Assembly (NCBI GenBank): GCA_041649955.1 | Contig: JBAZMD010000002.1 | Coordinates: 7,709-71,708, forward strand | From: Patescibacteria group bacterium | Lineage (GTDB): Bacteria; Patescibacteriota; Patescibacteriia; UBA2591; JAQUPP01 | Reading direction: 5' to 3' | DNA length: 64,000 bases | In this document: positions 30,001 through 36,000 of the stretch, piece by piece | How positions within the stretch are numbered: the first letter of the stretch is position 1 | Layout of the letters: each line of letters starts with the position of its first letter | Made by a program: the position numbers

Positions 30001-33000
30001 TTAATAGCATCACCGACATTTTTAATACCCGGTAATTCCACAATCACGCGCCAATCTTCTCCCACTTTAGCGGTTTGAATTAAAGGTTCGGCAACGCCAA
30101 AAACGTTTACCCTTCGCTCAATCACGTCGCGCGCTCCTTCAACAGCTGAAACTTTTTGGTCATCGGGAATTTGCGCAGTATTGGCTTGATAAATCAATTG
30201 AGTGCCGCCCTGCAAATCAAGTCCCAAATGGACTTTTTGCTTGGTAAACCATTGATGTCCCGGAACCCAAGATGGAAGACGCGGAATATCAACTAAAAGA
30301 GACAAAACAGTCAAAACGATAATGCTTAAAAAAATTGTCCAAAGTTTATTGCGAGTCATAATATCTTTTTTCTAACAATTTAATTTAAATAAATATAGGA
30401 TTATTTTAACATTAACAAAAAAAAAGTCAACTATTTATACCCAGTATCAATTTACCGCCTTATTTCAATTCTTCAGCCAAAGCGATAATTTTTTCTAAAA
30501 CCTTATCAAAACCGGGTAATAATTTTAATTTTTTCGCCTCTTGTAAATTAACCCATTGATAATTTCTCGCCTCCCAATCAAGTTTTATTTTATTTGTCTT
30601 CACTTTTACCAATACCGGATGAACAATCCATGTTTTTTTATATTTTGGTTCGTCTTGATCAAAAATTTCTCCAAGCCGAATTTGCAAAACATCTTTTTTG
30701 TTAATACCCAATTCTTCCCTTAATTCCTCTTCAACTTTTTCTGCCAAAATTTTATCATCATCTAAAAATCCTGAAATTCCATTCCAATATCCGGGATAAA
30801 AATTTAATTTCTCGCTTCGCTGAACCAAAAGAAATTTGTTTTTATATTTAATCACGCAATTTATCACTGGCGCCCAGCGCGCTTTTGTATAATCAACTTG
30901 ACCTGGTTTTGGCTTAAATTTCATTTTTTTATTTTTCATAGCATTTTTTTATAAACAATTACCCCTCTCTGATTATAAATTTTTTGCCACTCCTTGTTTT
31001 TTTCAATCTCTTGCCATTTCGAATATTCCTTCTGAAAAACTTCTCTGTCATTATTTAATTGAATATTTTGGAGCGATAAAATAATGTATTGGCTGTCATT
31101 AATCTCCGGAAAAAGATAAATTTTATCGCGATTAGCTGCGTGAGGAACAATAGTATTATAGGCGCTAAGCGAAGCGTCAGCAGGAATTTTTTTAATTGCT
31201 TCGGCTATTTCATTTCTCTGGGCGAAATCTCCTGAATAGTAAATGGGTATAAAAATTCTCGATAATTTTGAACCGTCAAAAAAATGGATTTGAGACAATA
31301 AAAAAAGATTAGAAATTATCAAAACGCTTATTAAAGAGTATTTAAGAAAAGAATACCCTATAGCGCCTTTTAATCTGTAAATCATTATTATAGAACCGAT
31401 AGATATAATGGGGGCTATCTCTATCCAATAATGAAAACCATAATCAGCTCTCCACCGCTCCGGTGAGTCGGTAAAAAAATTCCGGCAAAGCATTGGTATC
31501 GCTAATAATAAATATTGAGGCCGCCAGATCGCCAAAAATCCTCCGGAAACTAATAAAAATTTAAGGGCTTCTCTTTTAACTTCAGGGTTTAAAAAATAAG
31601 AAAAAATAAAAAACGGATTAGAAATCTTCATTTTATCCCCCCCAAAAAAAGCATGCCCTAAGGTTCCATACAAAGACAAATAAGAATACGAACCTTGATT
31701 AAATAAAGAAATAAATTTGATGGCGGAAAAAAAATAAATAATACTTAAAATAAAAGTAATAAGTCCTTGCTTTTTTAAAGATTTTTTTTCAAAAATTATT
31801 ACAGTAAGTCCCAAAATAGCGCCGATCAATGCCATGTCTTCTCTTGAAATTAACATTAACAATAAGAAAACATAATATAATTTTATTTTTTCTTTTTTTA
31901 AAAAATAAAAAAGCCAAGGCAAAAACATTATTCCTATTACATTACAATGAATACAAAAACCTAAAGCGATAAAAACGCCGAAAAAAAGATAGAATAATAC
32001 CAGTCCGCTTAAAGCTAAAATCTCATCTTTAGTTTTTTCTCTTAAAAATAAAAATGCGCCCAAACCGCCGGAAATAATAGCTAAAATTTGAAAAATTAAT
32101 AAAGTGTAGGTATGAAATAACCAATAAAAAGGCGCCAATAAAAATAAAATTAATTCAAAATGATCTCCTAGTAAATTAGAAATACCTTTTATAGTATTCG
32201 GTTTTATTTGAAAATTGGCATAATGATAAAGAGTTTGGTTATAAATTCCCATATCCCAAGCAGTGGTTCTAAAATTGTAATGCGGCACCAAGGAAACTAA
32301 ACTGTATAAAATAAAAAATATTCCGACAATAATCAGAATTAAATAATTTTTTCTAAAAAATTGATTTAAATTAGCCATAACTTTTTTTAATTTGTTTGAT
32401 ATTATTCACTGTTATCCAAGCCGACATTAACCCAAATCCCGTTTTATCAATTTCAAATGGCTTAATTTTTTGCGGATTTTTTAAAAACACGAGAATGCAA
32501 TAATTTTTATTTTTGAATCTTTTAAAAAATTCTGGAATTTTTTCTTTTTCTATTCCGTCATCTTTGCCGTATTTATTCAAAATTTCTTTGACTTTTTTCG
32601 GCGTAAGGCCAAAAAAATGAATTACTTTTTTTACTTCAGCTTTTATTTTTATTGATTCGCCAGAATCTTTAAAATAAACCGTCTCGCCTTTTTTAATTCT
32701 GTCCCATGGTCTGTATTTTGCGACATACCACCTTGATTCAATCTTTTTTTGGCCATTCAGAATTTTTTCAGTCAAACCCCACGATTTTTTCATTATCGCT
32801 ACGTGTTCCATATTATATTCTTTATGTTTTCTATATTATAACATTCTCACATTCTCAAGAATGTCAGAATGTTTTTAATGACACTTTTTAAATTTATTTC
32901 TTAGCCTCTAAAAATTTTTTAATCATTTCAACTTTTTCTTTGCGGCCGATTTTTTCATACACATTCAATTCATCATTTAGAGGCATACAGGGTAATTTAA

Positions 33001-36000
33001 TTTTATCAAATTCTATATAAATTTTATCTTTCAAACTATCCGGTTTTCTGGAAATATTATTTACATTGCCCAAAACCTCAATTTCCATGCCATCAATTTC
33101 ATAAAAACTTCTGAACGAATTCCGCCCCTCGCTTTTATCAAAATAAATCTCTTTCGTCCGATACTCTTTTAAAATTTCATCAATTTCTTTTATTATTTCC
33201 GGAGTAGTCAAAATATCAATATCTCTTGGTTCAATTTTTAAACCTTGAATATATAAATTAACTGAACCAATAAAAGCGTAATCAACGCTTTTTAATTTTT
33301 CTGAAATTATTTTTAAAACTTTATTGATTTTCTCCATTTCATTTTCCATAGCATTTCTTTATCTTATTTCCGTGTCCGCAAAAATTTCAACCATAATTTC
33401 TTAAAAAATGGCATTGTCAAAGTTGAGATCATAAATGCTACGGCTGGCACAATTGCATTAAGCCATGGTCGCGATATTTTTATTACCCAAAGATAAATTC
33501 CAATAGATAAATAAGTAAATATCGTCAGTAAAATTCGCCTGGTCCAGCTTGTCTCCCACGCCTTGTCAGTCTCAACTTTTTTATTTCTTTCTTCAATTTT
33601 TTGAATTTTTTGTTCTAAATTTTCCATATTATTTCCCGTAACACTTTTTATACTTTTTACCGCTGCCGCGCGAACATGGATCTTTCGTCGTTTCAAAAAA
33701 TTTATTAAGAAGCCAAGAACTTGATTGAATTTTTCCACCCTTACCGACTCCAAATACTACTTTGCACCCAATTTTTTTACATTTGGCGACTTCGGGGATA
33801 TTATCTTTTGTCCTATCTCCACCGTTAGCAAAAATATCGGGTTTTATTTTCTCCAGCTCTTTGCAGACGCTTCTGTCAGTAAAATTCTTAGAATGAGAGG
33901 TCAAAATTACTTCATCAACATCCTTAATCGCTTCTAATATTTTTTTTCTGTCTTTTTGCGGCATAAACGCGTAGCCCTTCTTTTTCTTAAGCCAGTTGTC
34001 ATTATTCAAAATAACCACCAGTTTGTCTCCAAGTTTTCGCGCTTCTTGAATCAACCGGATATGACCGATATGTATCGGATCAAATCCTCCGCTCACTGCG
34101 ATGACTATTTTTTTGGTTTTATTTTTCATGGAATTTTTTAAATTTCTTTACTAATCCACAATGATTGATCATTCAATAATTCTTTAAAATAAATATCCAC
34201 ATCGTCCAATCTTGTCAATTCTTCCCAGCTATACCACTTGTATAAATCATTTTCATTTGTATCTAATTTAATCTCCCCTAGGGTTTTTCCCAAATAGGTC
34301 AAACGAACCACATGGCGACCAGTTTCTCTTAAAATATCTTGAGCGGCAATAAGTTTTGGGTTTCCGACAATTTCCAATCCGGTCTCTTCAAACACTTCTC
34401 GCTTTAGATTTTCAATCAGGGTCTTGCCAGTATCAATTCTTCCCCCAACAATATCCCAGCGTCCTTTTATGTCTGGATATTTTTCAAGAGATCTGCGCAA
34501 CAATAAATATTGTCCGTCTTTATTTTTGAGAAGTATCTTTACCCCAACTTGTAATATGAGATTATTTTCCATGGCATTTTTTGTTCTTTAATTATTATCT
34601 TTAGGAATATCATAATAATTCGCTCCTGTTTGATAACTGTCCATTGCCATTCTGCACATCTCAAACATTGGCCGAGGAAGCTTGCCAAGTTCGTACCAAT
34701 TCCATGATTCTAATTTTTTTGGCTCTAAAACTTTTGGTTCGCCGTCTTGCCAGTCTGCCGACAATCCAATATGCACATAATGTTTTGGAGTATATTTGGT
34801 CACATTTGCCAAAAATTGAAATCTGATATTTTTAATATCAATACCGCATTCCTCTTCTACTTCTCTCTTTGCGCAATCCTCAAAAGATTCCATATATTCA
34901 AGATGTCCGCCGGGAAAAGCATATTCGTTTTCGCCGTGCGATCCTTTTCTTTTTCCAAGCAAAACTTTTTCATCTTTAAGAATCATCACGCCGACACCGA
35001 CTTTTGGCCTATTTTGTTGCTCCATAAATTTATTTTTCAGTATTTTTATTCTCAAAAAATCTCAAAAAGTTGAGAAAATGGAGAAAATTAAGATAATTCC
35101 ATGCATTATATTTTCCTAAAAATCCCAAGAAACCGAGAAAACCTAAAAAGCCCAAACAATCTAACCCTCTAATTTTTTTCATAAATTTTTTAATTATTAA
35201 TAATATTTTACACAAATTAAATTTCTTCTAATGGATATATGTCCAATGCAACTTCTTCATAAGGATGAACTTTTTTAATTGCCCTTATCACGTCTGCCGC
35301 TTTATCTCGTTCGCATAAAACTTCTATTCTTTCTTCTGCAACCGATTCAAATTTACCCACTTCTCCAATACTGGGATGCGCGCCTTCTTCAGGTTTAAAT
35401 CGCCCAATACCTTTTGATGAAAAACTGCAATAAGTGTAATTGCCGATTTTTCCCGCACCCGCTCTACCCATAGCTTCACGAACTATGTCTGTATGGGATT
35501 CTGGCACAAATACTACAATTTTTACGTTATTGGATTGACTCATATTTTTAGTTTCTATTTTCCATGACATTTTTTAGTCTGTAAAGCTTTATGATTCTTC
35601 CAAAATAATTTTTTTCTTAAATACTCCTCTTTTCTTTGCTTTTTTCTTTCTTACTGCTTCAAGTTTTTTTCTATTAAACTTCTTAAAACTGCAAATCGCA
35701 TTAATCACCTCTTGAATATCCGCCATTTCTTCAATGGTTTCGCTTTCAGAAAATTCTTTTATTTCCTCCTGTAATTTTTCTTTTAATTTCTCCCAATATT
35801 CTTTTTCTTTGGCAATATGAATAATCGGCACCCTGCCTTCGCTTTTTATGTGTTCCGGAATTTTATCTCTGACTAATTTATTATATTTCATATTTTTTGA
35901 ATTATATTATTTCCCACAGCATTTTTTATATTTTTTCCCGCTACCGCAAGGACACGGATCATTGCGACCGACTTTTTGTTTGCTATTTATCGGTTCTACA

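Follow-up and report, generated by a model that had tools for sequence, protein, structure and literature searches.

Patescibacteria, whose genomes are tiny, are unable to make nucleotides, and the ways in which they gain and rearrange accessory functions are poorly understood. We analyzed a stretch of 64,000 nucleotides (nt) from the metagenome-assembled genome of a Patescibacteria group bacterium (GCA_041649955.1, contig JBAZMD010000002.1, positions 7,709 to 71,708, forward strand), referred to here as the window, and focused on an island at 30460-35891 in which eleven close-set genes, all on the minus strand, lie with secA upstream and secDF downstream (Table 1). These genes encode a 100-amino-acid (aa) COG4997-type protein that is putatively MazG-like, a stand-alone PII-like domain, a small hydrophobic protein, three NUDIX proteins (A, B, and C), a HIGH-motif cytidylyltransferase, the membrane protein TM2, a minimal nucleotidyltransferase (NTase), an ASCH-domain protein, and a DUF2079 protein. 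Neighboring genes are separated by -8 to 34 nt, except at two larger gaps (82 and 100 nt), and the GC content is 31% in the island versus 38% in the flanks (secA plus secDF). Because identical DNA is present in three independent assemblies, the island is not an assembly artefact. The locus is a cassette-like mosaic between conserved flanks, with tail-derived repeats at its joints and fast turnover between close relatives, and its cargo is biased toward nucleotide-handling families.

Copies of the SEC-C tail at gene junctions

The last 57 nt of secA (35907-35963) encode a SEC-C zinc tail, DPCPCGSGKKYKKCCGK followed by the stop codon, in which all four zinc ligands are intact. The cytidylyltransferase family shares this SEC-C motif, CxCGSGKKxKxCHGK-stop, at its C terminus, and homologues keep the CxC...CH ligands; the tail of the window protein has lost two of the four (CSR...CY) and failed a four-ligand PF02810 test. 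At the DNA level, the two tails form a 60-nt direct repeat that is 80% identical (33626-33685 and 35904-35963) and brackets 2.28 kb, and their synonymous sites show no recent identity. We considered whether the cytidylyltransferase tail was a purely local relic and rejected this, as the tail is a family trait that is present even where secA is not nearby.

The end of the tail also recurs on its own. When we searched the 64 kb for the last 21 nt (core AAAAAATGYYATGGAAAATAA) with up to 3 mismatches, nine matches were found, compared with 0.23 expected. Seven of these lie within the island, on the gene strand and at gene junctions, namely, secA/MazG-like, MazG-like/PII, NUDIX A/NUDIX B, NUDIX B/cytidylyltransferase, cytidylyltransferase/TM2, TM2/NTase, and DUF2079/NUDIX C. 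Outside the island, where the window has roughly fifty other gene starts, there are just two matches, both with 3 mismatches. This confinement to the island led us to reject a role of the 21-mer as a DNA uptake sequence.

To corroborate these matches, we used a DNA profile trained solely on 46 genuine tails from other genomes, with hits reported up to E=10. All eight hits reported for the 64-kb window fell inside the island, with E values of 3e-14 (secA), 1e-12 (cytidylyltransferase), 0.009, 0.048, 0.063, 0.072, 0.19, and 2.7. The copies at the seven junctions retain 7 to 19 codons of the SEC-C tail end, and the relic at TM2/NTase keeps 14 codons. For NUDIX B, the cytidylyltransferase, the NTase, and NUDIX C, the annotated ATG of the downstream gene falls inside the cCATGg of the relic, which accounts for part of the repeated MEN starts (ATGGAAAAT) that a first-pass annotation of this DNA had singled out as identical. 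Such starts are indeed present at 34572, 33627, and 33349, and a fourth copy lies at 35565. TM2 is the exception, its MEN start being conserved throughout the TM2 family.

Table 1. Features of the island and its flanking genes
Feature	Coordinates	Strand	Evidence or remark
secA	35907..38651	-	upstream conserved flank; SecA domains plus PF02810
COG4997-type "KLVRDKIPE" protein, 100 aa, putative all-alpha MazG-like nucleoside triphosphate (NTP) pyrophosphatase	35589..35891	-	cassette 1; motif and source names
Orphan SEC-C tail end KKCHGK-stop	35555..35575	-	1 mismatch; profile E=0.072; overlaps start of PII-like gene
Stand-alone PII-like insert domain of NIF3/YqfO, 117 aa	35217..35570	-	PDB 2gx8 E=8e-31
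Small hydrophobic protein, 50-61 aa, LGFLGF repeat	35030..35215	-	small membrane protein
NUDIX A, 145 aa, NUDX1/NUDT15-like	34588..35025	-	PF00293 E=8e-20
Orphan SEC-C tail end KNKKCHGK-stop	34562..34582	-	0 mismatches; profile E=0.0088; holds NUDIX B ATG
NUDIX B, 144 aa	34138..34572	-	PF00293 E=1e-18; PDB 3grn E=1e-15
Degenerate tail end KKFHEK-stop	34119..34139	-	2 mismatches; profile E=0.048; contains cytidylyltransferase start codon
HIGH-motif cytidylyl/adenylyltransferase, 166 aa, RfaE-domain-II/TagD-like	33629..34129	-	PF01467 E=5e-18; SEC-C tail at 33629-33685
TM2, 87-aa two-helix membrane protein	33364..33627	-	Patescibacteria-wide conserved family
14-codon orphan tail CGHGNKIKKCYGK-stop	33339..33381	-	profile E=0.063; out of frame with TM2, overlaps start of NTase gene
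TM1012-like pol-beta-fold nucleotidyltransferase (NTase), 151 aa	32894..33349	-	PDB 2ewr/4hx0 E=2e-16
ASCH-domain protein, 146 aa	32371..32811	-	PF04266 23.4 bits vs cutoff 21.2
DUF2079 polytopic membrane protein, 480 aa	30936..32378	-	PF09852 E=5e-52
Degenerate tail end KKCYEK-stop at DUF2079/NUDIX C junction	30929..30949	-	1 mismatch
NUDIX C, 159 aa, divergent Nudix box	30460..30939	-	precomputed PF00293; NUDIX model matches
secD (28752-30359) and secF (27858-28745)	27858..30359	-	downstream conserved flank

The rest of the window carries genes for DnaK/GrpE/HrcA, a Mur ligase, MurG, DprA, topoisomerase I, ParAB, tRNAs, LepA, MurJ, and glycolytic enzymes, as well as a polysaccharide cluster. 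Two tandem paralogues of cofactor-independent phosphoglycerate mutase (39373-40953 and 41071-42648, minus strand) are found upstream of secA and are also tandem in L092, a related locus described below. Elsewhere, a free-standing 194-aa LAGLIDADG-like open reading frame (ORF; 16355-16939, plus strand; PF14528 E=7e-8) is flanked by tRNA-Leu (16252-16335) and tRNA-Met (16961-17033), with no intron context detected. Rfam and tRNA scans found no RNA elements in the island. In a promoter and terminator scan, promoters were at chance level and terminators modestly above it, and operon boundaries could not be drawn.

Breakpoints and gene content in related loci

We compared the window with about 170 loci that were picked via two anchor genes, those encoding the cytidylyltransferase and the COG4997 protein. 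The cytidylyltransferase-anchored set consisted of 80 species-representative genome loci and 3 nonredundant loci (83 in total). NUDIX ORFs were counted with an iterated hidden Markov model; a strict Nudix-box regular expression overlooked most NUDIX genes. In about 30 of the cytidylyltransferase loci, secA lies upstream on the same strand at a gap of 0 to 7.3 kb, and in about 10, secDF lies downstream at 0 to 8 kb. This placement defines a secA - cytidylyltransferase - secDF backbone that has two variable slots.

In L092, the closest relative, SecA has 93% amino acid identity to that of the window, and the DNA is about 90% identical. Nevertheless, the two share only the COG4997 gene (86%), the NTase gene (91%), and the NUDIX C gene (87%). 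Six genes of the window (33346-35589) correspond to one different NUDIX gene in L092, and the ASCH and DUF2079 genes (30941-32910) correspond to a DUF1653 gene, so that at least seven genes differ, and both window-specific blocks end at a tail relic. Differing whole-gene cassettes between conserved flanks, with no mobility genes, are the arrangement that characterizes minimal-mobile-element-like loci. A second locus, L257, has TM2 directly behind the secA tail and is collinear through this junction with the cytidylyltransferase-tail/TM2 junction of the window, which has 2.3 kb inserted between duplicated tails where L257 is uninterrupted. This collinearity places the window block from the MazG-like gene to the cytidylyltransferase gene between duplicated tails at an ancestral secA/TM2 joint.

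The secA tail itself differs in L092, where a long variant followed by a hairpin has taken its place, and the old end, YKKCCGK-stop, is orphaned directly before the COG4997 gene. This pattern looks like a small insertion carrying its own replacement tail. The long-variant SEC-C tail, CGAKKxDGTPIKYKHCHGK-stop, was observed at the secA 3' end of L092 (5868-5975) and also of L064, L079, and L088; in L092, a hairpin with a 15-bp stem follows it and precedes an orphan GYKKC[CH]GK-stop tail end.

Tail relics are also present beyond these closest comparisons. In the comparison loci, the pattern K.C[HCY][GE]. directly before a stop codon was matched 55 times on the gene strand and not once on the opposite strand (1.28 Mb). 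Among the 58 pattern matches analyzed, with the window included, 19 were orphan tails unattached to a long ORF, nearly all of them less than 1.3 kb past the end of secA. Orphan tails at cassette junctions were likewise found in the metagenome relatives L157, L174, L132, L098, L099, and L103, and the L157 relic (SCGHRNKIKKCHGK, then stop) resembles the TM2/NTase relic of the window. Within one genome, the tails of secA and the cytidylyltransferase gene were 0.73 to 0.86 alike, compared with 0.64 between genomes, and the own tail ranked 1, 2, 1, and 1 of 11. Gene conversion is a suggested cause of this similarity, and shared codon usage may also play a part. In L067, SecA and the cytidylyltransferase both end in the long-variant tail KHPDGRPIKYKHCHGK-stop (5334-5354 and 6036-6056; 86% DNA identity), and these identical tails suggest gene conversion between the two genes.

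The slots differ in their genes and resemble each other in the kinds of genes they hold. In the 83 loci, 13 of 17 NUDIX ORFs are located within 2 kb of the cytidylyltransferase gene (about 0.43 per 10 kb, versus about 0.05 at greater distances), each of the five COG4997 genes is no more than 700 bp away from it, and NUDIX outnumbers every other Pfam family among the 149 slot ORFs. In 80 metagenome loci anchored on COG4997, none of the 17 NUDIX ORFs is more than 2 kb from the anchor, and secA is found at most 2.8 kb upstream in 20. In each of four long contigs, the COG4997 gene is one to four genes behind secA, with NUDIX adjacent in three; these contigs also carry genes for ASCH, dCMP deaminase, DUF1653, NTPase_I-T, or metallophosphatase. 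House-cleaning families elsewhere in the slot comprise NTPase_I-T, PF12643 MazG-like proteins, and dCMP deaminase, and ASCH is found there too. For example, L065 has PF12643 MazG-like, NTPase_I-T, COG4997, cytidylyltransferase, cupin, and NUDIX genes consecutively, L034 has an ASCH homologue (75%) between secA and the cytidylyltransferase gene, and the PII-like (NIF3) family is found in the secA slot of L036, L100, and L174.

Gene order differs everywhere among the relatives. The density of nucleotide-hydrolase and nucleotidyl-transfer genes, which the first-pass annotation had called unusual for a reduced genome, is real and recurrent near both anchors. That annotation had named a nonconserved, scattered arrangement in relatives as evidence against its reading: the nucleotide-enzyme theme is not scattered among relatives, but there is no conserved unit, and order and content differ even from those of L092.

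Protein families of the cargo

PF00293 matched NUDIX A and NUDIX B with 71.7 and 68.1 bits, respectively (Pfam gathering cutoff, 21.1). NUDIX C carries PF00293 in precomputed annotation and matched NUDIX models of NCBIfam, PADLOC, and PHROG, and thus the three NUDIX genes proposed earlier on one strand (30460, 34138, and 34588) are supported by family models. By direct reading, the Nudix box (GX5EX7REUXEEXGU) is intact in NUDIX A (GHLEYMESFEDCAKREVEEECGI), has a K in place of the first E in NUDIX B, and departs from the consensus at the first E and the R in NUDIX C, while the catalytic EE pair is retained in all three. In searches of the PDB, NUDIX A matched 6fl4 (E=4e-29) and NUDT15 (E=3e-24), and it appears closest to NUDX1/NUDT15-type, i.e., NTP-type, enzymes.

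The 100-aa COG4997-type protein had been taken for a MazG-like pyrophosphohydrolase. As a single sequence it gave no Pfam, NCBIfam, or PDB profile match, nor did a 30-sequence profile match the PDB, and hhalign returned a probability of 0.4% for its relation to a PF12643 protein. The AlphaFold model is of low confidence (predicted local distance difference test score, 67.6), and a Foldseek search of the PDB with this weak model yielded nothing at E<=0.001, with the HisE structures 1yvw and 1yxb appearing only at E=3-7. In the motif EExxE...EExADxxE, residues E42, E43, E46, E54, E55, A57, D58, and E61 are invariant in 30 homologues, and the acidic motifs map to predicted helices 29-50 and 53-70. 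The label of putative MazG-like protein rests on this invariant motif and on the NCBI and JGI (COG4997) names. The family is a common phage gene too, with at least 120 matches in IMG/VR viral contigs (L177-L256) at 35-53% identity.

The HIGH-motif cytidylyltransferase stood up to profile searches, with 66 bits to PF01467 (cutoff, 21) and a literal HIGH motif. HIGH and QSSSW are invariant across the family alignment, and family members from Patescibacteria and some DPANN archaea share 60-75% identity. Among NCBIfam models, the best match was rfaE_dom_II (heptose-1-phosphate adenylyltransferase domain II) with 85 bits versus a cutoff of 181.5, followed by TagD (60.6 versus 165), and the remaining subfamilies (RibL and NMNAT) scored lower. 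By these scores, the protein appears closest to RfaE domain II, although far under the cutoff. A 265-aa homologue, P0100, has a C-terminal ASCH-like extension (PF04266 E=0.009, below cutoff), which may be a weak hint at a functional link between cytidylyltransferase and ASCH.

The minimal nucleotidyltransferase and the ASCH-domain protein named in the first-pass annotation were likewise recovered. The NTase matched PDB 2ewr, 2fcl, and 4hx0 (TM1012; E=2e-16 over residues 10-151), shows GS..DID by direct reading, and reached 20 bits with PF10706 (Aminoglyc_resit), just under the cutoff of 21; the ASCH protein exceeded the cutoff of PF04266. Short membrane proteins were present as proposed at 35030-35215 and 33364-33627, but one "membrane protein" is actually the 480-aa DUF2079 protein. 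The first of the short proteins has a fourfold LGF repeat (LGFLGFLGFLGFLG) and a borderline match to DUF3796 (24.5 bits versus a cutoff of 24.8). The second, TM2, belongs to a Patescibacteria-wide family with 2462 homologues at 72-90% identity and a nearly invariant N terminus, MENLEQKIQKIEERN; its gene is absent from the ENA gene call. The stand-alone NIF3 PII-like domain and the SEC-C tail relics had been overlooked.

The functions given here for the island enzymes are predictions drawn from family knowledge. On this basis, the most likely role of the island would be nucleotide-pool sanitation and salvage, i.e., the removal of noncanonical or excess nucleotides and nucleotide-linked metabolites. 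A toolkit of three NUDIX proteins, a MazG-like NTP pyrophosphatase, nucleotidyltransferases, ASCH, and the NIF3 PII-like domain would suit a nucleotide scavenger.

Interpretation of the island and comparison with known systems

Together, these results lead us to favor, with moderate confidence, the view that the island consists of about eight short, co-directional, promoterless cassettes (eleven genes) that built up at a recombination hot spot flanked by the essential genes secA and secDF on a Patescibacteria (Parcubacteria-type) chromosome. We propose that this begins with secA, which ends in a tail-coding stretch of about 50 nt, and with the widespread cytidylyltransferase gene, often just behind secA, which ends alike. 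The repeated tail-coding sequences would act as portable homology, such that incoming DNA with a tail copy recombines into the resident tail, and each event would leave an extra tail copy at the junction that later decays. Tail-to-tail recombination could also delete or exchange cassettes. In this way, homologous or homology-facilitated recombination at the tails would move cassettes in and out. Donor DNA would probably be taken up by natural transformation, at which dprA in the window and the tail repeats as possible homology hint indirectly, and transcription of the cassettes probably reads through from secA. We also considered insertion by an integrase that duplicates the target site. The duplication is real, but with no recombinase among the annotated larger ORFs of the 64 kb and no recent synonymous identity, we kept this idea only in the form of homologous recombination.

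Several observations weigh against the cassette interpretation. The short relics are individually marginal (E=0.01-0.07), and the case is cumulative. The 21-nt core holds the ATG used by genes, and selection on start context could add to its conservation. Relic left ends vary from 7 to 20 codons, indicating that there is no single crossover point. No recombinase or mobility gene was found in the 64 kb, and so the route of recombination is one that we infer. The comparison set was chosen by anchor genes and is not an unbiased sample of genomes, and phylogenetic nonindependence inflates the enrichment. As to the cargo, the MazG-like assignment gained no support from the profile and fold tests tried, and the cytidylyltransferase is below all NCBIfam subfamily cutoffs.

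One alternative is an ordinary, vertically inherited nucleotide-metabolism operon that has been shuffled, with the 21-mer as a shared translation-initiation or coupling context; if the relics are merely start-codon context, the region is an ordinary small-hydrolase gene cluster. The genes are co-directional and tightly packed, the motif ATG is the annotated start of four of them, the MEN start of TM2 is a family trait, and the same families recur in relatives, all of which such an operon would explain. Yet, apart from the two 3-mismatch matches, the motif is missing from the other gene starts of the window and is restricted to the region downstream of secA. Moreover, relics reach 13-20 codons of recognizable SEC-C sequence in the window and in relatives and are recovered by a profile of genuine tails, L092 differs at breakpoints that coincide with relics despite its near identity, and L257 shows the secA/TM2 junction uninterrupted. 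We therefore consider a housekeeping operon unlikely.

We give similarly little credence to a cell-envelope glycan or nucleotide-sugar module, in which the RfaE-II-like enzyme would activate a sugar phosphate, DUF2079 and nearby glycosyltransferases would use the product, and the NUDIX proteins would trim nucleotide-sugars. The best NCBIfam match of the cytidylyltransferase points in this direction, as do DUF2079, GT4, and MurJ just downstream, cupin and GT2 genes after the cytidylyltransferase and NUDIX genes in L049, L065, and L088, and Wzy_C and epimerase genes upstream of secA in relatives. That best match is far under its family cutoff, however, NUDIX A is closest to NTP-type enzymes, and the MazG-like/NUDIX/ASCH guild persists behind secA without the cytidylyltransferase in L092-L095.

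Defense was addressed with PADLOC and PHROG, and a defense system was rejected because these scans yielded generic matches only. In the PADLOC scan, which covered ten of the eleven island proteins (all but DUF2079), the NUDIX proteins matched the candidate PDC-S07 alone, and the other seven proteins matched nothing. In Pfam and precomputed annotation of most larger ORFs (at least 120 aa) across the 64 kb, no recombinase, nuclease, TIR, SIR2, or similar protein was seen. An anti-phage or nucleotide-signaling island, raised in the first-pass annotation, whose enzymes deplete or modify nucleotides or degrade signaling nucleotides during infection, would fit the rapid gene turnover between close relatives, the PDC-S07 matches of all three NUDIX proteins (E=9e-14 to 1e-8), the viral COG4997 matches, and the PHROG matches of the NUDIX proteins and the cytidylyltransferase, but is very unlikely, since the PADLOC matches reflect a general NUDIX resemblance and their target is an unvalidated candidate, no partner protein of the sensor, nuclease, TIR, SIR2, CD-NTase, or STAND type was seen, the flanks are core housekeeping genes, and the cassettes are single small enzymes rather than multigene systems.

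Returning to cassettes that accumulate behind secA, we tentatively suggest a wider role for the tail. The SEC-C tail-coding sequence might serve in Patescibacteria as a portable, integrase-free recombination target that stacks, swaps, and loses promoterless cassettes behind an essential gene, an integron-like capture on short coding homology that favors nucleotide-sanitation cargo for ultra-reduced scavengers; we regard this as possible rather than probable. If true, it would represent a sequence-readable way to gain and lose cassettes at a single chromosomal site with no dedicated recombinase, and nucleotide-pool hygiene would be a function that Patescibacteria keep tuning. Linked targets for biochemistry are the 100-aa COG4997 protein, the SEC-C-tailed cytidylyltransferase (shared with DPANN archaea), TM2, and the stand-alone NIF3 PII-like domain, which are very conserved and uncharacterized. 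In the literature that we searched on Nudix proteins of the candidate phyla radiation, COG4997, the SEC-C motif, and Patescibacteria nucleotide salvage, we found no description of this arrangement.

With regard to cargo, nucleotide "house-cleaning" enzymes comprise MutT/NUDIX, MazG-type all-alpha NTP pyrophosphatases, and YjjX/NTPase_I-T. The same superfamilies occur here (three NUDIX proteins and the COG4997 MazG-like protein), with NTPase_I-T and PF12643 in the slot of relatives. In model bacteria, however, these enzymes are scattered singletons, whereas those of the island form a cluster, are exchangeable, and are linked to the 3' end of secA. The recurrent linkage of a PF01467 transferase with NUDIX and weak matches to NCBIfam fusion models recall the bifunctional NadM-Nudix enzymes, in which a HIGH-motif nucleotidyltransferase is fused to Nudix. 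Here, in contrast, the genes are separate, the scores are far below cutoffs, and the transferase is nearer to RfaE-II/TagD than to nicotinamide mononucleotide adenylyltransferases.

With regard to architecture, integron arrays resemble the island in having promoterless, co-oriented cassettes of one to three genes, a short repeat after each, and presumed upstream-driven expression. The island repeat, however, is a 21-60-nt coding fragment, not a 57-141-nt attC hairpin, and annotation of most ORFs of at least 120 aa in the 64 kb revealed no IntI tyrosine recombinase beside the array. When the seven junctions were folded as single-stranded DNA, no attC-like hairpins emerged (z scores of -1.05 to +0.70 relative to shuffled sequences). 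As no integrase was seen among these ORFs and the junctions fold no better than shuffled sequence, an integron was ruled out.

Integrative and conjugative elements (ICEs) and cis-mobilizable elements (CIMEs) accrete in tandem at gene or tRNA 3' ends, where att direct repeats remain. The island is similar in that the target gene's 3' end is the source of its direct repeats, the incoming copy restores the target, and old copies are pushed downstream. It differs in that its units are 0.3-2 kb, no integrase was found, and relic boundaries vary; homologous or homology-facilitated recombination appears likelier than ICE/CIME-type integration. In the minimal mobile elements of Neisseria, cassettes that lie between conserved flanking genes are swapped through transformation and homologous recombination. 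Like these, the island has conserved flanks, differing whole-gene cassettes in close relatives, no mobility genes, and dprA nearby. Unlike them, it is punctuated by copies of the coding end of its flanking gene, which would provide extra recombination points and allow serial accretion. The closest analogies are the Neisseria minimal mobile elements and tandem accretion at gene 3' ends.

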